Source: a virus
Taxonomy: Duplodnaviria; Heunggongvirae; Uroviricota; Caudoviricetes
IMG/VR virus record: IMGVR_UViG_3300012347_000377
Coordinates: 128,001 to 192,000 of that record
DNA length: 64,000 bases
Direction: 5' to 3' (one strand)
Positions 8,365-60,489 of this stretch are shown here, piece after piece. Within the stretch, counting starts at the first letter, position 1. Each line of letters opens with the position of its first letter. The notes under the pieces were generated by a model. That model was not told the origin of the DNA, ran no database searches, and saw nothing but the letters and a program-made list of their open reading frames with translations. Position numbers and translations under genes: made by a program.

Positions 8365-8379
8365 TTATAAAGGATAGAT

Positions 8380-8973
8380 ATGAAATCATTATTAATAGAA
8401 ACTAACCTATTTGAAGGTAAGGTAAATGAGGATGAAGGTGGAAGAACTCTTGTAAAAGGTATTCTACAACGTGCTGGTGCCGAAAATCAAAATGGTAGAG
8501 TATATCCGATGGAAATTTTAAGAAGAGAAGCACAGAAATATGAAACTCTTATTAAGGAAAGAAGAGCGTTAGGAGAATTAGACCATCCAGATTCATCTGT
8601 AATCAATTTAAAGAACGTTTCTCATAACATTAAGGAAATCCATTGGGAAGGTAATGATTTATGTGGGACAGTTGAAATCTTACCAACTCCATCGGGTAAT
8701 ATCTTAAAAGAATTATTAAGAGCAGGAATCCTTTTAGGAATTTCATCTCGTGGTATGGGTTCAGTATCACCAATGGGTGAGGGTAAAGTAAAAGTAGGTG
8801 AAGATTTTGAATTAATCGGTTGGGATTTTGTATCCAATCCATCTACACATGGTGCATTTATGACACCATTACAAGAATCCGTAAATAAACAATTACAAGA
8901 ACAAGCAGTAGTATGTGGTGATTTCTGTAAGGCACAAGACCTTATGAGAGAAATCATTACTGAATTAGCATAA
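8380..8973 (+). CDS. gp21: Prohead core protease (T4 gp21-like)
   Basis: NQNGRVYP, ALGELDHP, GISSRGMGS, DFVSNPS motifs. Confidence 0.96.
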   Translation: MKSLLIETNLFEGKVNEDEGGRTLVKGILQRAGAENQNGRVYPMEILRREAQKYETLIKERRALGELDHPDSSVINLKNVSHNIKEIHWEGNDLCGTVEILPTPSGNILKELLRAGILLGISSRGMGSVSPMGEGKVKVGEDFELIGWDFVSNPSTHGAFMTPLQESVNKQLQEQAVVCGDFCKAQDLMREIITELA

Positions 8974-11146: not shown

Positions 11147-11155
11147 ATATTTATA
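11147..11155 (+). promoter_or_regulatory. Putative late promoter of bS21
   Basis: ATATTTATA. Confidence 0.7.
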
Positions 11156-11185
11156 CAAAAGTTACAAACAATTTAAATTAAATTA

Positions 11186-11449
11186 ATGAGCGGAATATCA
11201 AGATGCACAGTAGAAGTTCGTAATGGAGACATTACAAAGGCTTTGAAAATCTTTAAAAAGAAAGTTATGGAAAGTGGTCATCTCTTAGAATTAAGAGAAC
11301 GTAAAGAATACGTTAAACCAACTACTAAACGAAGATTGGTTAAACAAAAGGCAGTTAGAGAAGAACAAAAGAGAGTTATTCTTGAAAAAATAGCCGATGG
11401 TGACCGAAAATTACGTTTTTATACAAAAAAACGTAAGAAAAAAGAATAA
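11186..11449 (+). CDS. rpsU: Ribosomal protein bS21 (phage-encoded)
   Basis: VEVRNGDITKALKIFKKKV...LRERKEYVKPTTKRR matches the bS21 signature. Confidence 0.92.
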   Translation: MSGISRCTVEVRNGDITKALKIFKKKVMESGHLLELRERKEYVKPTTKRRLVKQKAVREEQKRVILEKIADGDRKLRFYTKKRKKKE

Positions 11450-11495
11450 AAAATGTAAAATTTATAGAAAAATATAGTTTTTTTATAAATTGTAT

Positions 11496-11504
11496 ATATT
11501 TATT
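11496..11504 (+). promoter_or_regulatory. Putative late promoter of scaffold/MCP
   Basis: ATATTTATT. Confidence 0.6.
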
Positions 11505-11654
11505 ATCAATTAACTCACTCTCAATGTGAGTTTTTATATTAAGTTGGTTAATGAATACCCTTCTATATAAGGTGTGACCGAACAACCGACCTAACTTTAA
11601 TCTATATTGGAATTCTCCTAATAATTTCACAGAACAACACAAGGAAGGTAAAAA

Positions 11655-12710
11655 ATGGCAAATTCAAAATTGTTAAAAGAAGCAATTGCTGATGCTAAGG
11701 CCGTTAGAGAAACTGCAATCGCTAATGCAAAAATCGCATTAGAAGAAGCATTCACTCCAAGATTACAATCTATCTTATCTAAAAAACTTCAATCAGAGAT
11801 GGAAGGTGAAGAAGAAGAAGCAGATGTAAACGAAGAGTATGGTGCTGAAGACACATCAGATGCTGATTCATCAGCAATCGGTGATGGCGAAAACAAACAA
11901 CCTGCAGATGACGCTAATGACTCATCAGACATTGCACAAGGAAATCCTGATACTGACGTTGAAACTGCTCAAACAGGCGAAGAAGATGAAAACATCGAAG
12001 TAGTTGCTGAAGCAGAAGAAGACGAAATACCAGGTGAAACTCAATCTCGTATCGAAGAAGAAGACGAAGACGAATTGGATTTAGAATCAATCATCAGAGA
12101 ATTGGAAGACGAATTAGGTGGTGAAGAACTATCTGAAGAAGAACCATCTGAAGAAGAACCAGTTTACGAAGAAGAAGCTGAAGAAGAAGAAGCATCTGAA
12201 GAACCAGCAGTTGAAGAAGCTGAAGGTGAAGATGAAGAAATCGATTTAGATGAAATTTTACGTGAAATGGGATACGGAGATGATGAAGAAGCAGTTGAAG
12301 AAGGTGAAGAAGAAGCAGATGCAGCTATGGCAGCTAAAGATGCTGAATTGGAAGAAGCTTACAACGTAATCAAATCTCTAAAATCAACAATCAACGAAGT
12401 TAATTTGTTAAATGCAAAATTATTGTACACAAACAAATTATTCCGTTCTTACGATTTAACTAATGAGCAAAAACATAAAGTTGTTGAAACTTTAGATAGA
12501 ACTCAAAACGTTAGAGAAGTAAAATTAGTGTTCTCTACTTTGGCAGAATCAATGAAAATTGGTGGAACTGCTAAAAAAGTAAAAGCACAAACAAAATTAA
12601 CTGAATCATTTGCTTCTAAGCAAGTTGCTTCAACTGCACCGAAAAAAGAAATCATCGCAGAAAGTAACGGATTAGCAGATAGATTCAAGCAATTAGCAAA
12701 TATCAAATAA
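11655..12710 (+). CDS. Prohead scaffold/core protein (gp22-like)
   Basis: Extremely acidic, coiled coil, directly upstream of the major capsid gene. Confidence 0.85.
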   Translation: MANSKLLKEAIADAKAVRETAIANAKIALEEAFTPRLQSILSKKLQSEMEGEEEEADVNEEYGAEDTSDADSSAIGDGENKQPADDANDSSDIAQGNPDTDVETAQTGEEDENIEVVAEAEEDEIPGETQSRIEEEDEDELDLESIIRELEDELGGEELSEEEPSEEEPVYEEEAEEEEASEEPAVEEAEGEDEEIDLDEILREMGYGDDEEAVEEGEEEADAAMAAKDAELEEAYNVIKSLKSTINEVNLLNAKLLYTNKLFRSYDLTNEQKHKVVETLDRTQNVREVKLVFSTLAESMKIGGTAKKVKAQTKLTESFASKQVASTAPKKEIIAESNGLADRFKQLANIK

Positions 12711-12737
12711 CAAAAACAAACATTAGGAGAAAATAAA

Positions 12738-14366
12738 ATGGCAAATTTCGATTTATCAAAACTAATGGAAGGAAAGAACCCACAACAAGTAATGTTGGCT
12801 GAAACACGTCAATTACAATCTAAGTGGGAAAAAACTGGACTTCTTGAAGGTTTAAAAAGCAGAGAGCAATCTCAAATTGCAGTTCTTTTAGAGAACCAAG
12901 CAAAACAATTATTAGATGAAGCAACAGCAACAGGTACTTCTGCAGGTTCAGAAGAGTGGTCTGGTGTAGCTTTACCATTGGTAAGAAGAATCTTTGGTGA
13001 AATCGCAGCGAAAGAATTCGTTTCGGTTCAACCTATGAACTTACCTTCAGGTCTAATCTTTTTCTTAGATTTCAAATATGGTACTGCACAACCGGGTAAT
13101 CCTGCATTCGCTGGAAAATCTTTATTCGGTGGTAATGGTACTTCTGCAGCTAATTCTGACTTCGGTAGAACTAAAGCAGCAGTAAACGGTCTTTATGGTG
13201 AAGGACGTTATGGATATTCAGTAAATGATTCATCAGTAGCAGTAGCTTCAGGTAACCAATCATTTGCAACAGCATCTTGGTCTGATGTAGGATTCGATTC
13301 AGCATTATCTGCTTCGGTTGCAGCATCTCAAATTGCTAAAATATCTGTATCAAAAGCAAACGTATCTGCAGTTTCTGACGTAGATGCAGTTCGTTCATTC
13401 TATGTATCATCTTCAGTATTCGCAGCAGCAGATTCATTCTACCCTGCATACTCAGCATTTGATGGTACAAACTACACATTCTTTGCTAAAGTAGCTAACA
13501 TTTCATCTGGTTCAGGTGCAACTACTTTAACAGTTAAATATTCTGAGCAACCTGCTGCTTACGACAGAGGTGATTTCGAAGATGGAAATCCAACAGAACC
13601 GGCTACTGATTTAGGTATTCCAGAAGTTGATTTAGAATTGAAATCAGAGGCTATCGTTGCTAAGACTCGTAAGTTAAAAGCAGTGTGGACTCCAGAGTTG
13701 GCACAAGACTTAAATGCTTACCACTCAATTGATGCTGAAGCAGAATTAACATCTATGTTGTCTGAATATATCTCATTAGAGATTGACTTAGAAATCTTAG
13801 ATATGTTAAAAGCTAACGCTTTAACAACTGAGTATTGGTCAGTAACTTTAGGTGAAGAGTACAACTCAGCAACAGGTGCATGGTTAGCAGGAACAAACTC
13901 TGCAGCATACACTAAAAACACATGGTTCCAGACTTTAGGTGCTAAAATCAATAAAGTATCTAACAAGATTCACCAATTAACATTACGTGGTGGTGCTAAC
14001 TTCATCGTAGCTTCTCCAGACGTATGTACGGTATTAGAATCTATTCCTGGATTCGTAGTAAACGCAGATAAAGATGCAATGTCATTCGCAGCTGGTGTAA
14101 CAGCAGTTGGTTCTATGGCAAATCGTTATACGGTTTACAAAAACCCTTATATGACATCTAACGAAATCTTATTAGGTTTCAAAGGTTCTAACTTCTTGGA
14201 GACTGGAGCAGTTTATGCACCATACGTTCCATTGATTATGACACCTTTAGTGTACGATCCAACTAACTTCACGCCAAGACGTGGTGTTATGACTCGTTAC
14301 GCTAAGAAGATGGTGCGTCCAGAATTTTACGGGAAAATTTATGTTAAAGATTTAGCTAATATCTAA
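12738..14366 (+). CDS. gp23: Major capsid protein (T4 gp23-like)
   Basis: VSVQPMNLPSGLIF, AKTRKLKAVWTPELAQDL, YAPYVPL, RGVMTRYA. Confidence 0.97.
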   Translation: MANFDLSKLMEGKNPQQVMLAETRQLQSKWEKTGLLEGLKSREQSQIAVLLENQAKQLLDEATATGTSAGSEEWSGVALPLVRRIFGEIAAKEFVSVQPMNLPSGLIFFLDFKYGTAQPGNPAFAGKSLFGGNGTSAANSDFGRTKAAVNGLYGEGRYGYSVNDSSVAVASGNQSFATASWSDVGFDSALSASVAASQIAKISVSKANVSAVSDVDAVRSFYVSSSVFAAADSFYPAYSAFDGTNYTFFAKVANISSGSGATTLTVKYSEQPAAYDRGDFEDGNPTEPATDLGIPEVDLELKSEAIVAKTRKLKAVWTPELAQDLNAYHSIDAEAELTSMLSEYISLEIDLEILDMLKANALTTEYWSVTLGEEYNSATGAWLAGTNSAAYTKNTWFQTLGAKINKVSNKIHQLTLRGGANFIVASPDVCTVLESIPGFVVNADKDAMSFAAGVTAVGSMANRYTVYKNPYMTSNEILLGFKGSNFLETGAVYAPYVPLIMTPLVYDPTNFTPRRGVMTRYAKKMVRPEFYGKIYVKDLANI

Positions 14367-16946: not shown

Positions 16947-16976
16947 AATAAGAGTTAAACATAAAACAATAAAAAT

Positions 16977-36492: not shown

Positions 36493-36536
36493 TGTGTATC
36501 ATTACACAACAAAAAATTTAACAGGAGTAATATAAA

Positions 36537-38849
36537 ATGGCAGAAAAAATTGTATCACCTGGTGTATTTACGAGAGAAAATGATCTTTCTTACTTATCAC
36601 AAGGAATCGGAGAAATAGGAGCAGCAATCATCGGACCTTTCGCTAAAGGACCTGCATTCGTTCCAACGATTGTTAATACACAATCTCAATTTGAATCAAT
36701 TTTCGGTGTACCCAATGGTGATTACTATACAGGATATGCCGTTCAAAACTATTTACGTGAAGCAGGGACAGTAACAATTGTTCGTGTTGGTCACGTTGGT
36801 GGTTATACACAAGTAGAACCAAAAGGTATCGCTATTAGTGGTTCTGAAGGAACTACATTAGTAGGTGTGTTAAAATCTACTCATAACTGGACTACATCTG
36901 GTAATGGTGATGCAGTAACAGCATCAATTCAATCTTTACCATCTTCATCTGAATTTAATATTTCAGTAAGTGGTTCAGATTCAGCATATAACTTAACAAT
37001 TTCATCTTCAGTTTTACCTTCAGCAGGTAATGATTTATCTGATGTATTTGGTGAATCTGCAAGAGGAACTAAAGGTGTATATGTATCACAATATTTTGAA
37101 AACGCTGCAACATTACTATCTTCTTCAATTGACGAAGGTGCTAAAGTTGTATTGATTGATTTAGATGATCAAGATTTTACAGATCAAGATGTTTCTTATG
37201 CATCTACTCCTTGGATTCAATCACAAATCATTTCAGGTGAAAGAAGTAACTTATTCCGTTTACATACGTTGGGTGATGGTTCAAACTATAACAAAGAATA
37301 TAAAGTATCAGTATATAACGTAAAAGCAGCAGGTGAATCTAATGCAACTGATTACGCTACATTCTCATTATCAATTAGAGCATACTCTGATACAGATAAA
37401 AGAAAATCAGTATTAGAAACTTATAATAACGTTAATTTAGACCCTGCATCTCCAAACTATATCTTAAAGGTAATTGGTGATAGAAACGTAACTATTGATG
37501 CAAATGGTAAACAAACTGAAAATGGTGATTATGCAAATCGTTCTAAGATAGTTAGAGTAGAAGTTGCAGCAGAAGGTTCATTCCCAATCATCGCAGGACC
37601 ATTTGGACATGAAGCATACCAATCTCCAATCGCAGGTAATGATGCAGAAACTCCGGCAGTAGTATTTACAACTGGTTCTGATTCTAACACAGCATCATCA
37701 TCTACTAAATATAGTGGTATTGATTTAGAATCAACATTGGTTAAAATTGACAACTCTCATTTCTTAGCACCAATTCCAAACGGAGCAGGAAACGGAACAA
37801 ACACTGCATTCGCATTCGATACTGAATTATCTTATGAATTAACTGGTTCTGCAACAGCAGATGTTAATAAAAGACAATTCGTAGTTGGTTTTCAAGGTGG
37901 ATTTGATGGAGTAACTCCAACAATCTCTAATGATAAAGGAACTGATATTTCAGCAGGTAATTCTCAAGGATTCGATTTATCAACATCTACATCAAGTGGT
38001 TCAGTTGCATATTTGAAAGCAATCAATTCGGTTTCCAACCCAGATGATTTCGATATTAACTTAGTAGTTGCACCGGGTATCGTGCGTTACCACCACTCTT
38101 ATGTATTTGATAAGATTATTGATATGGTTGAATCTCGTGAAGATGCATTCTTCATCGGTGATGTAACTGGTCCTGCAGAAGGTCAAGATTTAGCAGTAGA
38201 GCAGGCACAGTCAATCGATTCTAACTACGTTGGAACATATTACCCGTGGATGAAAACAATCGATAGAAACACCAACAAATTAACTGCAGTTCCACCATCA
38301 GTATTGATGCCAGGAATCTATGCAGCGAACGATGCAGTTGCAGCAGAATGGTTTGCACCAGCAGGTTTGAATAGAGGTGGAATCATCGGAGCAGTTTCAG
38401 TATTAGATAGATTAACACATTCAGAAAGAGATTTCTTATATGAGAATAAAGTTAATCCAATCGCTTCTTTCCCTGGTGAGGGTATTGTGGCATTTGGACA
38501 GAAAACTTTACAAGATAAAGCATCTGCATTAGATAGAATCAACGTAAGAAGATTATTAATCAAAGTTAAGAAATATATCGCTTCTACATCTCGTTACTTA
38601 GTATTCGAACAAAATACTGCAACGACTAGAAACAAATTCTTAAATACGGTTAATCCTTATTTAGATGCAATTCAACAAAGACAAGGTTTATATGCGTTCA
38701 GAGTAGTTATGGATGAATCCAACAACACACCTGATGTAATTGATAGAAACATTTTAGCAGGACAAATTTATTTACAACCTACTAAAACTGCTGAATTCAT
38801 TGTGTTAGATTTCAACATCTTACCAACCGGAGCATCATTTACAGCATAA
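36537..38849 (+). CDS. gp18: Tail sheath protein (gp18-like)
   Basis: SPGVFTREND, WFAPAGLNRG, GQKTLQ...RINVRRLL, PTKTAEFI. Confidence 0.96.
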   Translation: MAEKIVSPGVFTRENDLSYLSQGIGEIGAAIIGPFAKGPAFVPTIVNTQSQFESIFGVPNGDYYTGYAVQNYLREAGTVTIVRVGHVGGYTQVEPKGIAISGSEGTTLVGVLKSTHNWTTSGNGDAVTASIQSLPSSSEFNISVSGSDSAYNLTISSSVLPSAGNDLSDVFGESARGTKGVYVSQYFENAATLLSSSIDEGAKVVLIDLDDQDFTDQDVSYASTPWIQSQIISGERSNLFRLHTLGDGSNYNKEYKVSVYNVKAAGESNATDYATFSLSIRAYSDTDKRKSVLETYNNVNLDPASPNYILKVIGDRNVTIDANGKQTENGDYANRSKIVRVEVAAEGSFPIIAGPFGHEAYQSPIAGNDAETPAVVFTTGSDSNTASSSTKYSGIDLESTLVKIDNSHFLAPIPNGAGNGTNTAFAFDTELSYELTGSATADVNKRQFVVGFQGGFDGVTPTISNDKGTDISAGNSQGFDLSTSTSSGSVAYLKAINSVSNPDDFDINLVVAPGIVRYHHSYVFDKIIDMVESREDAFFIGDVTGPAEGQDLAVEQAQSIDSNYVGTYYPWMKTIDRNTNKLTAVPPSVLMPGIYAANDAVAAEWFAPAGLNRGGIIGAVSVLDRLTHSERDFLYENKVNPIASFPGEGIVAFGQKTLQDKASALDRINVRRLLIKVKKYIASTSRYLVFEQNTATTRNKFLNTVNPYLDAIQQRQGLYAFRVVMDESNNTPDVIDRNILAGQIYLQPTKTAEFIVLDFNILPTGASFTA

Positions 38850-38881: not shown

Positions 38882-38904
38882 AGTATAATAGGAGAAAAAA
38901 TAAA

Positions 38905-39393
38905 ATGGCAGAAGTATTAGAATTCAATGATATGTTCTATACCAATTTCGAACCAAAAACGAAAAATCGTTTTATCATGGAAATCGATGGTATTCCTTCA
39001 TATCTTATCAAAACAGCTAACAGACCATCGATTCAGTTTGAAACGATTACGTTAGATCATATCAACGTTAATAGAAAGTTGAAAGGTAAAGGAACTTGGC
39101 AACCAATAGAGATTACTCTTTTTGATCCAATCGTTCCAAGTGGTGCACAGGCAGTAATGGAGTGGGTTCGTTTATCACATGAATCTTTAACAGGTAGAGA
39201 TGGATATGCAGATTTTTACAAAAAAGATATTCAGTGCTATCTATTAGGACCAGTGGGTGATAAAATTGAACAATGGACATTAAAAGGTGCATTCATTGCA
39301 TCGGCTACATTCAATGATTTGGATTGGGCATCAAATGATGTTGTTGAAATCTCACTTACATTAGAATACGATTACGCTATTCTAGAATTCTAA
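38905..39393 (+). CDS. gp19: Tail tube protein (gp19-like)
   Basis: Follows sheath; EPKTKNRF...WTLKGAFI...LEYDYA. Confidence 0.92.
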   Translation: MAEVLEFNDMFYTNFEPKTKNRFIMEIDGIPSYLIKTANRPSIQFETITLDHINVNRKLKGKGTWQPIEITLFDPIVPSGAQAVMEWVRLSHESLTGRDGYADFYKKDIQCYLLGPVGDKIEQWTLKGAFIASATFNDLDWASNDVVEISLTLEYDYAILEF

Positions 39394-50150: not shown

Positions 50151-50203
50151 CCCATTGATATTGAATATATTATAACCCATTGAAAATCAATGGGTTATTT
50201 TTT
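50148..50203. repeat. Tandem 25-bp elements; the second is a hairpin/terminator
   Basis: TAACCCATTGAAAATCAATGGGTTA preceded by a degenerate copy; repeated at 58061-58117. Confidence 0.8.
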
Positions 50204-50237
50204 GCTATAAAAAAAGTAAAAAATAATTCACTTTTTA

Positions 50238-50275
50238 TTTGGATATATCGATTTTTCTTCGTATGTTAGCTTTGT
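50238..50275 (+). promoter_or_regulatory. Bacteroidota-type early promoter
   Basis: TTTG-N20-TAtgTTAG-CTTTG. Confidence 0.8.
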
Positions 50276-50306
50276 AATAAGAGATAAACATTAAAAGATA
50301 AAAGAT

Positions 50307-50534
50307 ATGAAAATCAAAGAATTTTATTTAGAAGCCTTTCCAACTGATGAATTGGGTGTTGAAATTAATAAAGAAGCAAATTTTGGTATGTTGTGGGCTG
50401 CAATTAGAGGTGGGTGTGTTTATGAATACATCGGTGTGTTTGATAGTATAGTAAGAGAACGAGTATTTGAAAAGTTCGCTGAAATCACTGGTCATGATTA
50501 TGATTACATTTATCAAGAATGGTTAAACGCTTAA
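50307..50534 (+). CDS. Small early hypothetical protein
   Basis: 75 aa ORF behind early promoter. Confidence 0.7.
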   Translation: MKIKEFYLEAFPTDELGVEINKEANFGMLWAAIRGGCVYEYIGVFDSIVRERVFEKFAEITGHDYDYIYQEWLNA

Positions 50535-50543
50535 AATTCATAT

Positions 50544-50681
50544 ATGGAACGAATTAAATTAGAAAAAGTGGTATTGAGTATGAGTGAGATTAGAATGGCC
50601 ACTCGTCCAAACATATATAAAAACAAAAAGAAATATAGTAGAAAACCTAAACACACTAAAAATGAGTTATACAAAGTTTGA
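50544..50681 (+). CDS. 45-aa basic micro-protein, ArfA-like (not in the ORF track)
   Basis: MERIKLEKVVLSMSEIRMATRPNIYKNKKKYSRKPKHTKNELYKV translated by hand. Confidence 0.6.
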   Translation: MERIKLEKVVLSMSEIRMATRPNIYKNKKKYSRKPKHTKNELYKV

Positions 50682-50910
50682 TAGACATGCTAATATGAGT
50701 TCCGAAACCCTAAGTGAACTAATGGATATTTTAAAAGATGTTCGTTGGGAAACTAGCTTTCAACTTAATAATATGATTTACGGATTATTCGATGGTTATT
50801 TATATGATGAAATACTTTCAACTGCAAAATTGGAGGCATCATCGGAGAGTTATAAACGAATAAAAAAAGTTGTAAATATTGTAAAAAAATATCCTAAAAT
50901 ATTTGGATAA
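50662..50910 (+). CDS. Early hypothetical protein
   Basis: Start re-called at MSYTKF (50662). Confidence 0.65.
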   Translation: MSYTKFDRHANMSSETLSELMDILKDVRWETSFQLNNMIYGLFDGYLYDEILSTAKLEASSESYKRIKKVVNIVKKYPKIFG

Positions 50911-50940
50911 TACAGATAAAAGTTGTATATTAGCTGTATA
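50902..50940 (+). promoter_or_regulatory. Bacteroidota-type early promoter
   Basis: TTTG-N20-TAtaTTAG-CTGTA. Confidence 0.75.
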
Positions 50941-50976
50941 AGATTGAGAGATAATAAACCTTTAAAATATAAAATT

Positions 50977-51336
50977 ATGAGTTTACCATTTAATGTTAAT
51001 TCAGTTCTTGCTTCCGCTTCGTTAATCGAAGGTTACGATGTTATTAAAAACGCTTTTCCAGTTGAGGGTAAGTATGTAAAACGAGTTATTACATATATGG
51101 ATGCAGTTTACAATGCATTAGATGAGGTTGCTGAAGATTATTCAGATTGGCCAGAAGACCAAGGGTTTGGTTCATCCGATATGACTTACGTTCGTAAATC
51201 ATTTATAGATACTATGATTGATATTGCTAACCTTAGAGGTTATTATGAAACAAAGTTTGACCCTTATTTAAAAGTGGTTGAATATTCAGAGGCTGAGTAT
51301 CACGAAACAATGTTGAGAAGAGAACAAGGATTATAA
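50977..51336 (+). CDS. Early hypothetical protein
   Basis: Start re-called at MSLPFN (50977), downstream of the promoter. Confidence 0.7.
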   Translation: MSLPFNVNSVLASASLIEGYDVIKNAFPVEGKYVKRVITYMDAVYNALDEVAEDYSDWPEDQGFGSSDMTYVRKSFIDTMIDIANLRGYYETKFDPYLKVVEYSEAEYHETMLRREQGL

Positions 51337-51352
51337 TATTAAAACATAAATT

Positions 51353-51718
51353 ATGAAAATTAAAAAGATAAACAAAGAGCAATTAGTTTCATTAAATATT
51401 TCTGATGAAAAATTATTAGATGAATATAAATTTTATCCAGAAAAGATTGTTAAAATACCATTTACCAATATAGTTTTATCACATACTATTGCAGGTTGGT
51501 CTATACCAAATAAATGTGGGTTATACTTCATTAGTTCAGATGAGATGGAAGGATATTCGGTAAAGAATGATACACTATATCGTAAACCATTTATCCACTT
51601 AACGTTTTCAAGTGGATATAGAGATGATATTCGTTTATACTTTGATACATTTCAAGAGGCGAACCAATGGGTTGAAACAACGTTAGGTAATATTAAACTA
51701 ATTGAAATTAAGAAATAA
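51353..51718 (+). CDS. Hypothetical protein
   Basis: 121 aa ORF in operon. Confidence 0.6.
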   Translation: MKIKKINKEQLVSLNISDEKLLDEYKFYPEKIVKIPFTNIVLSHTIAGWSIPNKCGLYFISSDEMEGYSVKNDTLYRKPFIHLTFSSGYRDDIRLYFDTFQEANQWVETTLGNIKLIEIKK

Positions 51719-52047
51719 TGAAAGGATGGTATTGTATTTATGAATGTGCAAAAAACCAATGGTTATATGATGGAATTATGTGGGTAAATGATAGAGATTT
51801 ACAACAGATGTCAATAGGAGCTAAACATGCAATCCAAGTTAGTCAATCGTATAATTACAACCCCAATTTACCACAGATAGAAATTATAGATACTCAAACT
51901 ACATCGGTATTATGTGAAGGTGGTAATACAATAGACCCACATCAAATAATGAAATTTGAAACAATGTTAGAAGCAGAAGAGTTTTTGATGAAAATGTTTA
52001 CATCTACTTATGGAAGTTTCTTTTCAATACGAAAAATATATTTTTAA
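51718..52047 (+). CDS. Hypothetical protein
   Basis: 109 aa, TAATG coupling. Confidence 0.6.
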   Translation: MKGWYCIYECAKNQWLYDGIMWVNDRDLQQMSIGAKHAIQVSQSYNYNPNLPQIEIIDTQTTSVLCEGGNTIDPHQIMKFETMLEAEEFLMKMFTSTYGSFFSIRKIYF

Positions 52048-52053
52048 AATAAA

Positions 52054-52087
52054 TTAGGTAATCTCACAAATAATTCGTATCTTTGTA
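52054..52087 (+). promoter_or_regulatory. Bacteroidota-type promoter, ATG 4 nt downstream (near-leaderless)
   Basis: TTAG-N20-TAtcTTTG. Confidence 0.75.
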
Positions 52088-52089
52088 AA

Positions 52090-53367
52090 ATGATTATAGT
52101 AGAATCTCAAAAAGAGATAGGTGATTTTTTAAACCAATGGGAAACTAAATCCTCATTGGTTATTCCTATTTGGGCCGATTTGGAATGTCATCCTATGAAT
52201 ACTCATTTGGCGTTCTTATATGTGAGATTTACCGAAGGAACTTATATTATTCCATTTGATCACAACGATTGTGAAAAAATCCAAATTGATTTATCTAAAT
52301 CTACCCAACAAAAATGGGTATGGAATAAGAAAGGTATTTTACAAACTCCAATCAATTTACAAAACATCTACGATATACAAAGTCAATCGTTCTTCATTCA
52401 TAATAAACTAATCGATTTAAACACCCAATTAGAACCTATAACGAACTTCTATACTCGTTTGGGATTACGTGATGGATTAGGTAAATCAATCCCTATAATG
52501 AAGTGGATTGAGGTTTTAAATGGTATTACGAATGGATGGTCATTTTTACCATTAAATGAGAAAAGTGGTAAAATTGAGTGGATTGATGATACGATGATTC
52601 CTATCCTTTCAGAGATTGAGAAAATGGGCATCCACGTCGCCACCGAAAAATTTTTTGATAGATGGCCACATAATTCCAAACACTTACACAATGCTATCAT
52701 TTGGAGTGAATATAACCCCTATACCCTTACCTCACGTCCCTCTAACCGACACGGAGGTATAAACTTTGGTGCGTTGAATAAAAAGGATGGATCGAGAGAA
52801 GTATTCATTCCAAGAGAAGGAACAATATTCTTACAATTCGATTATGATGCATACCACGTCCGAATTATTGGTAAGTTGATTGGATACGATTTACCAACAA
52901 CCTCCGTTCACCAATGGTTAGCAGACCAATATGGATGTCCTTATGATGAATCCAAAGGAAGAACATTCCGAATCCTTTATGGGGGTGTAAGTGATGAAGA
53001 TAAACAAATTCCGTTTTTTAAGGAGGTTGATGATTTCATCCAACGGGTCTATTCCGAATCCCAACAAAGAGGATACATCCTAACCCCAAAGGGAAGGAAA
53101 ATACCTCTCCATTGGATTGAAGGAGAAAACCCCCAAAAGGTATTTAACTATTTATTACAAGCAACGGAAACGGAGTTTAATATGGAGGTCTTAAAAAGAT
53201 TAAAGGAAGGTAATCACCCACTACCTATATTATATACCTACGACTCCTTTTTATTTGAGTATGGATTAAGTTGGGACACTGAACCGGCTAAGAGGATTAA
53301 GTCCGTTCTCGAAAGTTTTGGATTTCCCATAAAAGCGAGTTGGGGAACGGATTACTCAAAAGTTTAA
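52090..53367 (+). CDS. Truncated family A DNA polymerase-like protein
   Basis: TSRPSN, FDYDAYHVR (motif A), KGRTFRILYG (B), NYLLQA, YTYDSFLF (C). Confidence 0.8.
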   Translation: MIIVESQKEIGDFLNQWETKSSLVIPIWADLECHPMNTHLAFLYVRFTEGTYIIPFDHNDCEKIQIDLSKSTQQKWVWNKKGILQTPINLQNIYDIQSQSFFIHNKLIDLNTQLEPITNFYTRLGLRDGLGKSIPIMKWIEVLNGITNGWSFLPLNEKSGKIEWIDDTMIPILSEIEKMGIHVATEKFFDRWPHNSKHLHNAIIWSEYNPYTLTSRPSNRHGGINFGALNKKDGSREVFIPREGTIFLQFDYDAYHVRIIGKLIGYDLPTTSVHQWLADQYGCPYDESKGRTFRILYGGVSDEDKQIPFFKEVDDFIQRVYSESQQRGYILTPKGRKIPLHWIEGENPQKVFNYLLQATETEFNMEVLKRLKEGNHPLPILYTYDSFLFEYGLSWDTEPAKRIKSVLESFGFPIKASWGTDYSKV

Positions 53368-53375
53368 TATTTATA
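53367..53375 (+). promoter_or_regulatory. Putative late promoter of the nuclease operon
   Basis: ATATTTATA. Confidence 0.65.
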
Positions 53376-53397
53376 TACTAAGACACTTTAGTATATT

Positions 53398-54027
53398 ATG
53401 AAAAAATTTTTTACATTAAATTTATTATTATTCTTTGCTCTAATTTCATTTGGGCAAGATGTTGTAATTTTAAAACACCAAAATTACACCTCACATTTCA
53501 GTAAATCAAAAAAATATCCGGTAATGGTTCAATGGGAAACAACTACTGCAATGGTAGGATGTCCGACTCCGTTAAAACGAAAAGATAATTTTAAACCCGA
53601 CCCACAATTACCAAACGAAACTAATATTGGAGCGGATTATGTGAAAAGTGGATATGATAGAGGACACGTAATGCCAGCCGCAGATAATTTATGTCAAACT
53701 CCAATCGTACAAGATGAATGTTTTTATTTTTCAAATATGATTCCACAAACCCATAGATTAAATGCAGGAGATTGGAAATCATTGGAAACAGCGACTCGTA
53801 ATTGGGCAATGATAAGTGCAAAGGTAAGAGTGTGGAGTGGTGCAGTAGGAGAACAAAAAAAGATAGGTTCAATATCAGTTCCGACACAATGTTGGAAAGT
53901 AGTAGAAATAGCAGGTAAGAAAACGGCATATCTATTCAATAATGATTTATCAAATCCAGATGGGTTTGCTAACAACGAAGTTCCATTAGCACAAATCGAA
54001 AAACTAACAGGGTTTAAGTTTAAATAA
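53398..54027 (+). CDS. Secreted DNA/RNA non-specific endonuclease (NucA/EndoG family)
   Basis: Signal peptide ...ISFG-Q; SGYDRGHV, SNMIPQ...LN...W..LE. Confidence 0.92.
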   Translation: MKKFFTLNLLLFFALISFGQDVVILKHQNYTSHFSKSKKYPVMVQWETTTAMVGCPTPLKRKDNFKPDPQLPNETNIGADYVKSGYDRGHVMPAADNLCQTPIVQDECFYFSNMIPQTHRLNAGDWKSLETATRNWAMISAKVRVWSGAVGEQKKIGSISVPTQCWKVVEIAGKKTAYLFNNDLSNPDGFANNEVPLAQIEKLTGFKFK

Positions 54028-54031
54028 GATA

Positions 54032-54295
54032 ATGAAAGATTGGGGAGAATTTCTTAAAGATAATTATGATGGTAGAAAACCTCTAAGTGAAGTCACTAGA
54101 GATTATTACCTTTATATGCAACAAGAAGAAGTTCCTCAATTACCTGATTATGGGTTTCTTTTAAGTTTTTACAATTATGTAAAGAGTGGGGGTAGTTTAG
54201 AACAAACTACTCCCATTCAACCATTGGAAGGATTCTTATTGTTAGAAACTGGCGGAATGATATTACAAGAAAATGGGGATAAAATATATTTATAG
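54032..54295 (+). CDS. Small protein with C-terminal LLLETGG.ILQENG motif
   Basis: 87 aa, coupled to the downstream fibre-like gene. Confidence 0.6.
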   Translation: MKDWGEFLKDNYDGRKPLSEVTRDYYLYMQQEEVPQLPDYGFLLSFYNYVKSGGSLEQTTPIQPLEGFLLLETGGMILQENGDKIYL

Positions 54296-54298
54296 ATT

Positions 54299-55327
54299 AT
54301 GGCAGATAAACGAATATCAGATTTAAATTTACATACATCACTTGAACTAAGTGATTCATTACCCATTATCAATAATAATGAAACCAAAAAAACTACATAT
54401 GGTTCGTTGTATTATGGTATTAGAGATGGCGTAGTAAGTGGCTCACAGCAAATATCTGATTTTGGGTTTGCAACCACTGGTTCTAATGTATTTATCGGAA
54501 ATGAAACCATAAGTGGTTCATTCTTAGTAAGTGGTTCAACTACTCAAATTGGAAATAATACATTGGAAGGTAATACTCTTTTAGTTGGAACAATTGGAAT
54601 TACAGGTAACTCTACTTTAACCGGTTCATTCTTAGTAAGTGGTTCAACTACTCAAATTGGAAATAATACCTTATTGGGTAATACTCAATTATATGGTAAT
54701 ATAGATGTAAGTGGTTCAACTAAATTTCATAATCACTTAATTGAAATGACTGGTTCTATGTTTACAAGTGGTTCGCAAGTAATCACCGGTTCATTGGATA
54801 TTAACGGAAACATAAATGTAGCAAGTGGTTCTGCGTTTTATCGTTGGGGGAATAAATTATTCAACTATGGTGCATTTTCCGATACAACAATACAAACTGC
54901 ATCGGTAGCACAAGAAGATACTGAATTACTTATGAGATTTAATACTACCGATATTGGTGGCCATGGTATTTATATTGCAAGTGGTAGTAGAGCATATGTT
55001 GAAAATACAGGAATATATAATATACAATTTTCAGCACAATTTGATAGATTTAGTTCAAGTGGTATAAAAGTATTATCAATCTGGTTGAAAAAAGATGGTA
55101 ATAATGTTCCAAATTCATGTACTGATATTGTAGTATCAGGTGGTGCAAGTGAAGGAGCAGTGGTAGCAGCATGGAATTTTGTATATCCAATTGAAGCAGG
55201 TCATTATGTTGAATTAGCTTGGAGCACACCAGATCATAATATAGGAATATCCTCACTTGGAACAAGAACTACACCAATAAGACCAGCAGTTCCATCTACT
55301 ATATTAACATTGACACAAATAGCATAA
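54299..55327 (+). CDS. Fibre/spike-like protein with C-terminal C1q/TNF-like jelly-roll
   Basis: MADKRISDL N-terminus, SGS repeats, GIYNIQFSAQF...GHYVELAW; 47-nt internal direct repeat. Confidence 0.65.
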   Translation: MADKRISDLNLHTSLELSDSLPIINNNETKKTTYGSLYYGIRDGVVSGSQQISDFGFATTGSNVFIGNETISGSFLVSGSTTQIGNNTLEGNTLLVGTIGITGNSTLTGSFLVSGSTTQIGNNTLLGNTQLYGNIDVSGSTKFHNHLIEMTGSMFTSGSQVITGSLDINGNINVASGSAFYRWGNKLFNYGAFSDTTIQTASVAQEDTELLMRFNTTDIGGHGIYIASGSRAYVENTGIYNIQFSAQFDRFSSSGIKVLSIWLKKDGNNVPNSCTDIVVSGGASEGAVVAAWNFVYPIEAGHYVELAWSTPDHNIGISSLGTRTTPIRPAVPSTILTLTQIA

Positions 55328-55331
55328 TAAA

Positions 55332-55365
55332 TTTGGATATGTCAAATATTATTCGTATATTTGTA
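55332..55365 (+). promoter_or_regulatory. Bacteroidota-type promoter
   Basis: TTTG-N20-TAtaTTTG. Confidence 0.85.
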
Positions 55366-55386
55366 ATATCATAAAAAAGTAAAAAA

Positions 55387-57597
55387 ATGCAACAAGAGAA
55401 TTTTATTTCACAACTATTAAACGAACTTTCATATAGATGTAATGAAGGCTATCCAATTTTGTCTAAATCGGAACACATTCAAATCATTTCAGAAATCTTA
55501 GTTGAATGGGGATTGGGTGATATTAAAGAAGAATTGATTCAAAATTTAACTGAAGGACCAAACGATACTGAAGGACCTGAAAGTAAATTTACTCATACTG
55601 GTGGTGGAACATATGTGAAGAAGGGTGATGAAAAGAAACAAAATGCTCAAAAATATACTAAAGATGATAATGGAACGATGAGACCAATATCTGCTGATGA
55701 ATATGAAAAAATAAAAGCAAAACAAGGTGAAGAAGGTGAAACTGCCGCTCAACCTAAAAACGCTCAAACTTCTGCACAAAGTAATAGTGGTGAAGATGGT
55801 GGTGCACCTCAAGCCCCACCTGTAAATATCTATACTGGTGCTGATAATAAATCTACCGAAGAACGATATAAGAAAGAGGCCGAAGCAGCAAAAGATACTC
55901 CAATTTCATTAAATTCGGATGAACCTAAATACGATAAACAATCTTCGGTTGTTTTGAAACGTGTAAAAGAACAAATCGAAAAAAATAAAACCACATTATC
56001 ATCAGATCAATACGATATTACAAACAAATGTTATGATTTAACTCAAAAGTTATTTGATGAATCAATTTCGGATGATGTAAAAATTGAATTAGCTGATAAA
56101 ATTAGAACTGAATATAAAATTACTACTAACGCAGGTGGTAGTAAATATTATATTAATGTATTGGGTGGGAAACGAAAAGTATTTGGTGATGGAACTAAAT
56201 CAACCGAAGTTTTAGTTAATCAACTATTAAAATATACACAATTAGATCAAGTAGATTTTTCAGGTATTAAGAAAAATTTAACGGCAGCCGCTAAACCCGA
56301 TTTAGGTAAAGAATTTGAAATCAAACCAAAAGATGATGATAGAGTAAAGGCTTTATTCCAATCATCACCAGTGTTGTCAAGAATTAGAGAAGGTCAACAT
56401 GGTATATTTGCACCAAAAGATGAAAATGGTAAAATATTATATCCATCTAAAACTTATACTAAGGAATATCTACAGCAATCATTTGATAATCCAGCGTTAA
56501 ATAAAACTATTGAATTAGCAAAAGAATATCTTTCTAAGGGTAATTTATCTGCAGAATACATTGATGCGTTAGAAAATCATAAAAAACGTTTAAGTGGAAT
56601 GTTGGAAAGTTATAAAGCTCCAAGTGAAGATTTGGCTAATTCAATAGCAGATTCATATAACGATTTAATGGTTGATTTGAACAACGCAGATTCTGAAGCA
56701 GCTTCGGCAGTAATGAAACAACTTGCAGAGAATCGTTTATATGAAGAATCACTTGCAAGAGGTGAAGAAGTTTATTTACCATCAAATGGTTCATTTCCCG
56801 GTGGTGATATTATTAGAGTAGGTGGTGATAATGATATTGAAACTGTCTCATTAGTAAGTTGTAAATTTGGTAAAGAAGGTAGAATCTACGGATGTCCTGC
56901 AAATATGAAAGCTATAACTCAATTACATCCCGATGAATCAAAAAGAGATACATTTGGACAATATGTAGGTGAAAAAGGTTATACCCTAATGGTTAAGGAT
57001 GAGTTGATTAAAGGTGAAACATCTGAAGAAACTCAAAGTAAAATAAAAGATGTTTTATCCAAATCATTAAACACTCAAGCATTATCAGATTTATTTACAG
57101 ATGAAGAAATGGATTCGGTGAGTAAGATATGTAGTGATTACTTTACTAAGTTAGAACAAACTCGTACTAAATTAGAAAGTGAATTGGGTAATGTAAACGC
57201 AGATGCATTCTGGGGAGAGTTCCAAAAAGAATTGGGTAAATTCAAAAAAGAATATCAATTATCAATACAAAAACTCGTAACTACTGATAAGTTGGAGAAA
57301 TTGATTGGAAAAAACAATGTTCCTAATTTTAAAACAAGATTAAGTCCTGATGTATTTTTATCATCAGTTTTATTAACTGAAAATATTCGTAGTTCGATGG
57401 GATATGGATTATCACATAATAAACAATATTATGATGAAAACGGACAACCTCACTCAAAAACCGATGTTGGAACAGATGATCCAGATGACTACTCATTAAC
57501 TATTCGCAACGAAAGAACGGCGGGTAGAAATGGTGGTGGTATTCAAATGTCATTTTCAGCCGATGGCAAACGTTCTACTGGAGAGATTTTACCTTAA
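55387..57597 (+). CDS. Large hypothetical protein, possible PD-(D/E)xK-like nuclease domain
   Basis: 736 aa; FPGGDII...VSLVSCK. Confidence 0.5.
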   Translation: MQQENFISQLLNELSYRCNEGYPILSKSEHIQIISEILVEWGLGDIKEELIQNLTEGPNDTEGPESKFTHTGGGTYVKKGDEKKQNAQKYTKDDNGTMRPISADEYEKIKAKQGEEGETAAQPKNAQTSAQSNSGEDGGAPQAPPVNIYTGADNKSTEERYKKEAEAAKDTPISLNSDEPKYDKQSSVVLKRVKEQIEKNKTTLSSDQYDITNKCYDLTQKLFDESISDDVKIELADKIRTEYKITTNAGGSKYYINVLGGKRKVFGDGTKSTEVLVNQLLKYTQLDQVDFSGIKKNLTAAAKPDLGKEFEIKPKDDDRVKALFQSSPVLSRIREGQHGIFAPKDENGKILYPSKTYTKEYLQQSFDNPALNKTIELAKEYLSKGNLSAEYIDALENHKKRLSGMLESYKAPSEDLANSIADSYNDLMVDLNNADSEAASAVMKQLAENRLYEESLARGEEVYLPSNGSFPGGDIIRVGGDNDIETVSLVSCKFGKEGRIYGCPANMKAITQLHPDESKRDTFGQYVGEKGYTLMVKDELIKGETSEETQSKIKDVLSKSLNTQALSDLFTDEEMDSVSKICSDYFTKLEQTRTKLESELGNVNADAFWGEFQKELGKFKKEYQLSIQKLVTTDKLEKLIGKNNVPNFKTRLSPDVFLSSVLLTENIRSSMGYGLSHNKQYYDENGQPHSKTDVGTDDPDDYSLTIRNERTAGRNGGGIQMSFSADGKRSTGEILP

Positions 57598-57622
57598 AAT
57601 CATACTTTCGTTTCAAAAAAAC

Positions 57623-57631
57623 ATACTTATA
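57623..57631 (+). promoter_or_regulatory. Putative late promoter
   Basis: ATACTTATA. Confidence 0.65.
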
Positions 57632-57661
57632 GTCAAACCAATATAATGGAGGAGAGACTAT

Positions 57662-58063
57662 ATGCAAACACAATTATTGTGTTCCTTTACAACAAAGGAT
57701 GAATTACAAAATGTATTACAGAATATTAAACAAACATATAAAATAGTTTATAACTATATCTACGTCTTACAAAATAAAAGTAATTTAGAAGAATTATTTA
57801 TTACCTATAATATTGATACTCAATTCAAACCATCACATCCACTAAAGGATACGATTTTGGTTCATAGAAAAAAACAATCAAATACTCTATATACAATTAA
57901 TGCACTTAACGAATTAGTTAAAGAATTAAATGGGGGAGTTGCTGATAAGAATTTTACTATTGATTGGGATAATTACAAAAATTGTATCATCGTAACGAAT
58001 ACCGAAGGAACTAAGAAAATCAGTACAAGGATATTTGAAGTTATTGAATTAACTCAAAACTAA
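57662..58063 (+). CDS. Conserved hypothetical late protein
   Basis: Late motif at 57623 and GGAGG upstream. Confidence 0.7.
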   Translation: MQTQLLCSFTTKDELQNVLQNIKQTYKIVYNYIYVLQNKSNLEELFITYNIDTQFKPSHPLKDTILVHRKKQSNTLYTINALNELVKELNGGVADKNFTIDWDNYKNCIIVTNTEGTKKISTRIFEVIELTQN

Positions 58064-58117
58064 TCAATTAAATACCAACATATTATAACCCATTGAATTT
58101 CAATGGGTTATTTTTTT
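58061..58117. repeat. Tandem 25-bp elements; the second is a hairpin/terminator
   Basis: TAACCCATTGAATTTCAATGGGTTA preceded by a degenerate copy. Confidence 0.8.
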
Positions 58118-58140
58118 GTCTAAAAATAATGGATAAAATA

Positions 58141-58180
58141 TTTGGAAAATTGAAAAAAAGGTTGTATATTAGCTGTATAA
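58141..58180 (+). promoter_or_regulatory. Bacteroidota-type early promoter
   Basis: TTTG-N20-TAtaTTAG-CTGTA. Confidence 0.75.
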
Positions 58181-58210
58181 AATAAGAGATAAACTTTAAA
58201 CCCCATAAAA

Positions 58211-58555
58211 ATGATAGATTTTAGTAGAGTTCCCGCTGGTCAAATAATGGATGTGACAGTTTCATTAGGTAAAGCAACTAAAACGAAACGATTAAAGTTG
58301 TGTAAATTAAATACACGTACCATTCTTTTTATTGAAGTAGATAAAACACTTCGAATAAATACCTTTTATAAATTCCCAGTCAAAGAAGCTAGTAGATTTT
58401 TAGATAAGTTAGACCCACCTGTCTTAGAATTCAAAAATGGTGTTATGCCAGAAAAGTGGGAATCTGCGTGGGATTCAATTGGAACACGTCCTTCAGTTGC
58501 TTGGACACCTAAACCAACTTACAATTATGGTGGTTCAGCCCATTTTAGAACTTAA
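58211..58555 (+). CDS. Early hypothetical protein
   Basis: 114 aa. Confidence 0.65.
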   Translation: MIDFSRVPAGQIMDVTVSLGKATKTKRLKLCKLNTRTILFIEVDKTLRINTFYKFPVKEASRFLDKLDPPVLEFKNGVMPEKWESAWDSIGTRPSVAWTPKPTYNYGGSAHFRT

Positions 58556-58572
58556 AAATAAGTGAAAAATAA

Positions 58573-58604
58573 TTTGGAATTGTAAAATATTTTTTGTATA
58601 TTTG
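58573..58604 (+). promoter_or_regulatory. Bacteroidota-type early promoter
   Basis: TTTG-N20-TAtaTTTG. Confidence 0.8.
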
Positions 58605-58622
58605 AATATAAGATTGAGAGAA

Positions 58623-58835
58623 ATGATAAAGACAAAACAAAACAGAGGTATTGAGATTGATTTAACCGGTTCACAAGGAAACGCTTTTTTCTTATTAGGA
58701 ACTGCAGTGAATTTGGCAAGACAATTGGGATTAAACGCTGAACAGATTTGTGAAGAAATGAAAGCCAAAGATTATGAACATTTGGTTAATACATTTGATA
58801 AACATTTTGGAAATATTGTAACCCTTTATAGATAA
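58623..58835 (+). CDS. Small conserved phage protein (IDLTGxxGNAF family)
   Basis: Start re-called at 58623; IDLTGSQGNAFFLLG...DYEHLV..FD..FG. Confidence 0.7.
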   Translation: MIKTKQNRGIEIDLTGSQGNAFFLLGTAVNLARQLGLNAEQICEEMKAKDYEHLVNTFDKHFGNIVTLYR

Positions 58836-58839
58836 GATT

Positions 58840-59034
58840 ATGAGCACATTTGATGGTAAGATTTTTTGGAGAGAAGATTTTGATGGTGAATCCGCACAAG
58901 GTGGTATTTTTACTCGTTCGGTAGATTTGAAAAAGTTTATGGAATTAGTTGAGGCTAATGAAAATCAGAATGGCGGTGAAGTTATTGGTTTACGCTTTGA
59001 TGAAAATAATTTAGAATTAATTGTTAAACGATAA
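58840..59034 (+). CDS. Hypothetical protein
   Basis: 64 aa in operon. Confidence 0.6.
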   Translation: MSTFDGKIFWREDFDGESAQGGIFTRSVDLKKFMELVEANENQNGGEVIGLRFDENNLELIVKR

Positions 59035-59045
59035 AATATAAAAGT

Positions 59046-59303
59046 ATGAATTACGATGAATTGAGAAATCAATACAAACAAAAGGCAATTGAATTTGCTA
59101 AAGATTGGAATGTGGAAGTGTCAAATCACAATGTGGATATTATGATTTCCATTATGCAACAAAGGGATGGTATTATGACCGGTGGTGGATTTGTAGATGC
59201 GGTATGTAAGAACAACTTAGTTGAGGCGGTTTGTAGAGCAGATGGGGATAATCTTAGAGTTATTAAATTATTAGCATTAACTTATTCTAATTGTCACCTT
59301 TAA
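59046..59303 (+). CDS. Hypothetical protein
   Basis: 85 aa; GGFVDAV..NNL..AV.RAD..N. Confidence 0.65.
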   Translation: MNYDELRNQYKQKAIEFAKDWNVEVSNHNVDIMISIMQQRDGIMTGGGFVDAVCKNNLVEAVCRADGDNLRVIKLLALTYSNCHL

Positions 59304-59307
59304 TAGT

Positions 59308-59565
59308 ATGAAAGAATCATTAAAATTATATATTGGAATTGTAGTAATATTTGCTGGAATGATAGGATTGATTCGATATGTTGTCAGTAAAGCAAATGAA
59401 AAATACGATAACGCAACGTTTCGAATTGAGAGTGGTAATGATAAAATTTATTACGCAAATACATTTAGAATGTATGGTAAAGGAATTACGTTTGATTCCG
59501 TTGATGGTAAGAAGGTCATCTTAACGGGTGATATAGATATTGAATATATTAACAAAGAAAAATAA
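59308..59565 (+). CDS. Membrane-anchored hypothetical protein
   Basis: N-terminal TM helix. Confidence 0.6.
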   Translation: MKESLKLYIGIVVIFAGMIGLIRYVVSKANEKYDNATFRIESGNDKIYYANTFRMYGKGITFDSVDGKKVILTGDIDIEYINKEK

Positions 59566-59576
59566 AACATAAAATT

Positions 59577-60271: not shown

Positions 60272-60274
60272 TAT

Positions 60275-60415: not shown

Positions 60416-60429
60416 TATTATCCTCTTTA

Positions 60430-60463: not shown

Positions 60464-60489
60464 AAACAAAATAAATCAACTATAAACCA

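Follow-up and report, generated by a model that had tools for sequence, protein, structure and literature searches.

A phage bS21 without the tail-holding tyrosine and a possible retuning of host ribosomes toward Shine-Dalgarno-led late genes

The bS21 gene in the late module

The stretch of DNA analysed here (the window, 64,000 nucleotides) corresponds to bases 128,001–192,000 of a complete viral record of 288,673 bp with direct terminal repeats; its G+C content is 31–32% and nearly all of its genes are carried by one strand. The part from 1 to 50,200 (+ strand) is a late module of virion genes: within positions 1–50,000 the PHROG matches, given by gene start, are the large terminase (TerL, 1582), the portal (3720), the prohead protease (8380–8973, head maturation protease, E = 3e-51), the major capsid protein (MCP, 12738–14366, major head protein, E = 6e-74), tail fibres (25804 and 30718), the tail sheath (36537–38849, E = 1e-71), the tail tube (38905–39393, E = 8e-31) and the baseplate hub (39496). 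Past about 50,300 the genes are small and family matches are mostly absent, and this second part (50,307–64,000, + strand) is an early-type module of small genes placed behind host-type promoters. Near the beginning of the window, ORFs 904–1287 and 1166–1576 lie in different frames and overlap by about 120 nt, with a properly spaced Shine-Dalgarno (SD) site on both (AAGGA, AAAGGA), and a membrane helix is predicted for the former. Outside the window, the region of the genome between about 18 and 30 kb shows several strand switches among short ORFs, and the T-loop-like 7-mer GGTTCGA is present in 28 copies in non-coding DNA, which points to a large set of phage tRNA genes.

The gene under study (11186–11449, + strand) codes for a bS21 protein of 87 aa; it is placed inside the block of the TerL, portal, protease and MCP genes and is co-directional with its neighbours. 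A late-promoter-type motif, ATATTTATA, is found at 11147–11155 (+ strand), 31 nt before the bS21 start, and is followed by an A/T-rich leader of 30 nt (11156–11185, + strand) free of any SD (duplex energy +2.3 kcal/mol), so that an earlier description of the gene as having a late motif and no SD was accurate. The orthologues of five relatives (L002, L004, L010, L013 and L017) and the copy in the complete genome G002 are likewise SD-less. Downstream of bS21, a second late-type motif, ATATTTAT (11496–11503), is followed by a short hairpin, seen in the fold, and a T run (11512–11536); any function of this element (11496–11536, + strand) ahead of the next gene is putative. The next gene, 11655–12710, gave no family match, and may, judging by its position, encode a scaffold or core protein of the head; its SD, AAGGAAGGT, lies at 11641–11649 (+ strand), and an SD is found in 46 of its 56 orthologues. 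The 205-nt leader between the two genes (11450–11654) folds no better than shuffled sequences (z = −0.5), and an Rfam search with it gave no match. Part of its sequence is kept in L004 and G019 (…aatacc…attg(g)aattc(t)cctaataatttcaca…), and contains CCCUUC and CUCCU stretches potentially pairing with the downstream SD.

Among ribosomal proteins, bS21 is the one most often found in phage genomes. The product of gene 11186–11449 matched the Pfam family Ribosomal_S21 (PF01165) with an E-value of 2.2e-14 and 53.3 bits (cut-off 27), over profile positions 1–53 of 55, and among PDB chains it matched E. coli bS21 best (6.6e-6), with the F. johnsoniae chain 7jil_z at 5.2e-4. An AF2 model based on a 27-sequence alignment (mean pLDDT 76) predicted helices at residues 16–30, 32–37 and 48–71, followed by a disordered basic tail. 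The KP(S/T) turn, here K44-P45-T46, stands ahead of the long C-terminal helix, which is itself basic, and the terminal tail reads KKRKKKE. In a Foldseek comparison with the PDB, this small extended model had no significant match. More than 140 close homologues were found in metagenomes and none among species-representative bacterial genomes, while in the phage collection the matches came from phages of Pseudomonas, Methylophilales and Pelagibacter and from uncultured huge phages, with no similar bS21 in a cultured Bacteroidota phage. Homologues of bS18 and bS6 were searched for in the phage genome and not found, bS21 being the only protein of the anti-SD pocket that it encodes.

In bS21 of the Bacteroidia type, the two residues contacting the 3' tail of 16S rRNA are Tyr54, which stacks on A1534, and Ile55, which makes a van der Waals contact (Jha et al., PMC7797042). 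The sequence-only reading had proposed that in the phage protein an Arg replaces this Tyr, and that the protein is E. coli-like with a basic C-terminal extension; it had also called for an alignment of phage and Bacteroidota bS21 at that position, which we carried out. Residues 8–59 of F. johnsoniae bS21 were reconstructed from PDB alignments of two Tyr-bearing homologues, and include the stretch K40-P41-S-V-V-K-R-A-Q-I-Q-K-A-A-Y54-I55. Since BLASTP aligned residues 15–57 of the phage protein with residues 11–53 of the F. johnsoniae protein with zero gaps, Arg58 and Glu59 sit at the positions of Tyr54 and Ile55. The Tyr is not retained, and Arg58 is invariant among 27 members of the phage bS21 family. 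The likeness to E. coli is also borne out: the phage protein carries nine K/R in residues 46–68, as does E. coli bS21 in residues 42–64, compared with four in residues 42–60 of F. johnsoniae, and the E-values of the E. coli PDB chains are better than those of F. johnsoniae. The Tyr54 signature of the anti-SD-sequestering Bacteroidia type is absent in the phage protein (Arg58), as are its Ile55 contact and its less basic C-terminus; the extended strong SD of the Bacteroidia-type rpsU gene (below −13 kcal/mol) is also missing, the phage leader being at +2.3 kcal/mol. By these sequence features the phage bS21 is an ordinary one, of the non-Bacteroidia type.

Shine-Dalgarno sites and promoter classes

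Two motifs recur in the intergenic regions, ATA[TC]TTAT(A), found ahead of late genes, and the host-type TTTGG-N19-TTCGTATnTTTG. The former is present in 22 copies in the window, on the + strand only, against 6.5 expected, and 57 of its 78 copies in the whole genome (ATA[TC]TTAT) fall within the 7% of DNA that is non-coding. The latter is the Bacteroidota sigma-A pattern (−33 TTTG, −7 TAnnTTTG). In the window, matches to the Bacteroidota-type promoter number 12 against 4.6 expected, and an example, TTTGG-N19-TCGTATATTTG, lies at 55,332–55,363 (+ strand) ahead of the SD-less gene 55387–57597. In the whole genome, 27 of 43 matches to TTG-N17-21-TAnnTTTG are non-coding, compared with none of nine for the sigma70-type TTGAC-N17-19-TAnnnT, in agreement with the earlier claim that the early genes stand behind Bacteroidota-type promoters; their leaders are A-rich and G-poor. 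From the promoter type we infer a host among the Bacteroidota. By MCP, the nearest cultured relatives are phages of Flavobacterium (52% identity) and of Microcystis (53% identity). Immediately after host-type promoters with the variant box TAGCTTTGTA, the sequence ATAAGAG[AT]TAAAC is found at 16,948–16,960, 50,277–50,289 and 58,182–58,194, with one-mismatch copies at 15,475, 51,814 and 63,511 (six in total against 0.7 expected). It may mark the 5' end of early transcripts or act as a leader signal in them, and in the relative G024 it stands behind a different promoter, TTGAC-N17-TACCTT.

The SD core was defined as AGGA, GGAG or GAGG in strict Watson-Crick pairing, at −17 to −5 from the start codon. 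A duplex-energy measure (E ≤ −4.5 kcal/mol against CACCUCCUUU) was also tried and rejected: 16.6% of internal ATGs passed it, the same as at all real starts, and it was therefore too noisy to be used alone and was replaced by the strict core. In the proposed comparison of anti-SD pairing by promoter class, the division between late and early genes was found with the strict core, the energy threshold itself remaining at background. At the 400 called starts of the whole genome the SD 4-mers peak between −15 and −8, and the core is present at 14.8% of all starts compared with 5.7% of internal ATGs, taken as background. For genes directly behind the late motif the genome-wide figure rises to 21 of 40 (52%, about 9-fold over background, binomial 3e-16), compared with none of the 30 genes directly behind a TAnnTTTG box (Fisher 4.5e-7); the claim that genes with host promoters lack SDs is thereby upheld.

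In the window, 25 of the 47 starts in 1–50,200 carry the core, as does one of the 25 starts in 50,200–64,000; the latter is 57662, which has its own late motif at 57,623. All of the 23 starts to which the sequence-only reading had assigned an SD proved to have the core (904, 1166, 3207, 5521, 6368, 7651, 8380, 8985, 9443, 10675, 11655, 12738, 14548, 17724, 18889, 22006, 30718, 34853, 36537, 38905, 41335, 48948 and 57662), and 16086, 19443 and 20854 have it as well. The carriers include the genes for the MCP (AGGAG, 12725–12729), the prohead protease (AAAGGA, 8369–8374), the tail sheath (AGGAG, 36523–36527) and the tail tube (AGGAG, 38890–38894), all on the + strand, and one fibre gene; TerL and the portal, named beforehand as exceptions, were found without SD. 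The sites are mostly short (AGGAG 12, AAAGGA 10, AAGGA 9, besides AGGA), few reaching AGGAGG, and their extension toward AAAGGAG matches the CUCCUUU end of 16S rRNA. Complementary to the 16S 3' tail, canonically spaced and enriched over background, the late sites are, as far as sequence can tell, SD sites.

bS21 and SD frequency among relatives

A search with the MCP gave 80 viral loci with 51–82% identity. The median SD fraction was 0.50 in the 33 loci with bS21 upstream of the MCP gene and 0.07 in the 19 loci without it, the latter being loci in which 3 kb or more upstream of the MCP gene was available and contained no bS21; the MCP gene had its own SD in 28 of 32 loci with bS21 and in three of 19 without. 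Absence of bS21 from this position is not the same as a phage without bS21, as in G002 the gene lies elsewhere and the other bS21-negative records are 6–30% complete. Moreover, on the MCP tree the loci provide five independent contrasts, of which 3–4 are consistent with the association and 0–0.4 reversed (sign-test p about 0.25), a number too small for significance to be reached. The 80-locus association was rejected as proof, given these five contrasts only and the existence of SD-rich relatives with sigma70-type promoters, namely G021 and G028. In G021, a complete genome with an Arg-type bS21, SDs are found on 42–47% of all genes and on six of seven early genes, the promoters are sigma70-type (aaaggcTTGACt-N17-TATAnT, 10 of 12 non-coding), and the bS21 gene has GAGGT and a TTG start; G028 resembles it, being SD-rich, with TTGAC-N17-TATAnT promoters and an SD on the bS21 gene. 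In the SD-rich relatives bS21 often starts with TTG or GTG after (A)GAGGT (L023, L026, L031, L032, L034–L037, L039, L063 and L067). The co-occurrence of bS21 and SDs across the wide set is thus largely a host effect, and the association, confounded by host, cannot be counted in favour of a switch; comparison among relatives lends far less support than the raw numbers would imply.

The promoter types differ also among other relatives: G019, with 77% MCP identity, has TTGACA-TATAAT promoters, and G024 has four TTGAC-N17-TACCTT promoters. The capsid proteins of G019 (L113–L118), G024 (L119–L121), G021 (L102–L112) and G028 (L144–L147) are 54–77% identical, and early promoters of different types (Bacteroidota-like, TTGACA-TATAAT or TTGAC-N17-TACCTT) are used by such phages, which suggests that a single capsid lineage has switched hosts or sigma factors.

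A narrower comparison is offered by two genomes with known or probable Bacteroidota hosts. The complete 252-kb genome G002 has 20 non-coding Bacteroidota-type promoters and an Arg-type, SD-less bS21 in a late cluster elsewhere in the genome, and its SDs are divided like those of the window's phage, with 11 of 50 late genes and none of 18 host-type genes carrying one. Flavobacterium phage immuto shares the gene order of the head module, and its late genes are preceded by TATTTATA-like motifs; no bS21 was found anywhere in its 160-kb genome, SDs are present at two of 33 structural starts, and the MCP gene has none, nor has it in the ten loci of the immuto clade. Judged on its sequence, immuto is one clean control and fits the retuning of host ribosomes by phage bS21. 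The proposed comparison of SD use in relatives with and without rpsU therefore stands for immuto; in the wider set, the difference of 0.50 versus 0.07 is confounded by host.

Within the sub-clade of the window's phage (77–82% MCP identity), the SDs of the MCP gene, of gene 11655 and of gene 17724 persist while the other bases of the leaders vary, and their form differs from one relative to another (AGGAG, AAGGAG, AAAGGA); the SD of the MCP gene, for instance, is kept in L002–L006, L008 and L010 with different flanking bases. The retention of SDs amid changing leaders favours selection rather than a relic. On the other hand, the SD frequency in the clade of the window's phage is patchy (0.05–0.65), and the Arg-type relatives L010, L013 and L017, which belong to it, have few SDs (0.05–0.12), which argues that an Arg-type bS21 would not be sufficient for SD-rich late genes. 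Conversely, a Tyr is present at exactly position 54 in the phage bS21 of six relatives (L038, L045, L049, L055, L058 and L062), whose late modules are equally SD-rich (0.38–0.64); the promoters of the Tyr-type records G022 and G023 pointed to no one host type. These results speak against the earlier proposal of the missing Tyr as the mechanism: the missing-tyrosine step is plausible for the window's phage and, going by these sequences, clearly not required across the relatives. The bS21 of the six Tyr54-type relatives has an N-terminal extension of about 20–25 aa (…KK.K….LPG…), which neither the Arg-type family nor F. johnsoniae bS21 has.

Possible retuning of the host ribosome

The best single explanation of these observations, to which we give a probability of roughly two in five, is a retuning of host ribosomes by the phage bS21 in favour of late messages led by an SD. 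The protein would be made late in infection, its mRNA having an A/T-rich leader without SD in the style of the host, and would enter the host 30S subunit either in exchange for the host bS21, which is loosely bound, or by occupying subunits devoid of bS21. Once there, it would supply the essential N-terminal function but would not keep the anti-SD in the pocket formed with bS18 and bS6. Initiation would then be aided by the short SD sites, which cluster on the genes of abundant late products (capsid, protease, sheath and tube), and translation would thereby shift toward SD-led messages, the SD-less genes, both early and late, relying on A-rich leaders. A more pointed version, in which the phage bS21 turns SD-blind Bacteroidia ribosomes into SD-reading ones late in infection and the short SD serves as a phage-private, high-output tag on virion genes, is a more tentative proposal. 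The switch is plausible and testable, as the phage supplies a natural bS21 variant lacking both tail-holding residues together with a ready set of SD and SD-less leaders. Were it true, a virus would clearly be seen to alter which mRNAs the host ribosome prefers through the exchange of a single protein; the commonest virus-encoded ribosomal protein would gain a defined job, and there would be consequences for the prediction of translation starts in the genomes of Bacteroidota phages. Were it false, the conserved SDs of late genes in a host that is SD-blind would be left without explanation.

This mechanism has a close parallel in the autoregulation of F. johnsoniae rpsU, in which the state of bS21 decides if the 16S 3' tail is hidden or pairs with an SD (PMC7797042, PMC9976891, PMC13000457). 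In F. johnsoniae, the tail is freed when the bS21 C-terminus or Tyr54 is lost or mutated, and SD reporters are then translated more (PMC9976891, PMC13000457). However, the natural circuit involves one gene, a 13-bp SD and the absence of bS21; the phage case would involve dozens of genes, SDs of 4–7 nt and a variant bS21 that is present. The 13-bp rpsU helix excludes bS21 altogether (Arpin et al., PMC13000457), and according to McNutt et al. a weak AGGA site was unresponsive to bS21 deltaC, Y54A or depletion, the same perturbations increasing AGGAGGU 1.7- to 2-fold and rpsU 3- to 4-fold (PMC9976891). The sites described here being mostly of 4–6 nt, the unresponsiveness of weak AGGA in F. johnsoniae argues by analogy against simple unmasking (PMC9976891). 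Moreover, a switch would have no lead time, because bS21 shares its promoter class with the genes to be switched on.

The replacement of host bS21 by a phage protein has been speculated on by McNutt et al. (PMC9976891), and was proposed also for the bS21-encoding freshwater myoviruses assigned to Bacteroidetes hosts by Chen et al. (2022, ISME Commun, PMC9723584), for which late expression is expected; that late bS21 genes of such phages were already known had been stated correctly beforehand. Like those phages, the one analysed here is large and has a late bS21 gene among TerL, portal, protease and MCP. The bS21 genes of Chen et al. lie on the reverse strand, and all 61 proteins keep Tyr54 or another aromatic residue, from which the authors concluded that phage bS21 acts like the host protein (PMC9723584); the present gene is co-directional and has Arg58, and it is the Tyr-bearing relatives L038, L045, L049, L055, L058 and L062 that match their description. 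SD use of phage genes is not reported in that paper, and a division of SDs between gene classes is seen here. Two other systems bear some likeness: in Francisella a bS21 homologue alters mRNA selection, the difference being that it is a chromosomal paralogue in an SD-using bacterium (PMC9578407), and a bS21 is also encoded by Pelagibacter phage HTVC008M (Mizuno et al., 2019, PMC6375957); incorporation of this protein into E. coli ribosomes is reported, as cited in PMC9976891. For HTVC008M and the other viral ribosomal proteins the hosts are not SD-blind, and no SD division is described (PMC6375957). In a full-text literature search, incomplete in coverage, nothing was found that describes the SD division or an Arg-type phage bS21 in such a role.

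The ribosome-reprogramming switch put forward by the sequence-only reading therefore stands in part: the SD division, the late SD-less bS21, the change from Tyr54 to Arg, the Bacteroidota-type promoters and the immuto control speak for it; the SD-rich Tyr-type relatives, the SD-poor Arg-type relatives and the unresponsiveness of weak AGGA speak against it. The same observations bear on a different account, possible though on the unlikely side, by which the late SDs are real and selected and their reading depends on no particular feature of the phage bS21. Their readers could be naturally bS21-lacking 30S subunits, subunits losing host bS21 after host shut-off or another phage factor, and the phage bS21 would then have a general job, either ribosome completeness or the favouring of phage mRNA through its N-terminal helix. 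It would accommodate both the Tyr54-type bS21 beside SD-rich late genes and the Arg-type L010, L013 and L017 without many SDs. In addition, wild-type F. johnsoniae has a substantial pool of bS21-lacking ribosomes (PMC13000457), so that SD use is possible without the phage protein. However, if bS21-free host subunits were enough, immuto, with its known Flavobacterium host and no bS21, could use SDs too, and it has essentially no late SDs; nor was another candidate factor found. Less probable is that SDs and bS21 were inherited from ancestors living on SD-using hosts and persist with little present function, as could be read from the sigma70-promoter relatives, which are SD-rich genome-wide and carry bS21, from the TTGACA-TATAAT promoters of G019 at 77% MCP identity, from the patchy SD frequency in the clade (0.05–0.65) and from the report that an inserted SD lowers F. 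johnsoniae expression only mildly (PMC9976891). Sites without function, however, would hardly be confined to late genes at about 9-fold over background with the right spacing, or be kept at the MCP gene, 11655 and 17724 across diverged leaders with a changing exact form, and the immuto clade shows that such sites are completely lost when not needed.

We give little credence to the idea that the host is not an SD-blind member of the Bacteroidia, the SDs being ordinary and the gap between early and late genes one of expression level. It is true that the host was assigned from promoters, that close relatives use other promoter types and that no bS21 relative was found among species-representative bacterial genomes. 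Against this stand the 27 non-coding TTG-N17-21-TAnnTTTG sites with no sigma70-type counterpart, the extended consensus TTTGG..TTCGTATnTTTG, the A-rich, G-poor early leaders, the relationship of the MCP to that of Flavobacterium phage immuto, and the zero early SDs, which would be unusual if the host used SDs (G021 has six of seven). We also considered that AGGA/GGAG is not read by 16S rRNA and is instead recognised on late transcripts by an RNA-binding protein or a nuclease of the phage, comparable to T4 RegB, which cuts at GGAG; the reason was that the motif is short and confined to a single class of genes. Nothing direct speaks for it, the extension toward AAAGGAG and the position peak (−15 to −8) fit SD–anti-SD pairing instead, and no such factor was identified; we regard it as very improbable. 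As a minor observation, about 40 kb past the end of the window, at 231,963–234,833 of the genome, six consecutive small genes each carry AGGAG, AAGGAG, AAGGA or AGGA, with no late motif nearby in our scan.
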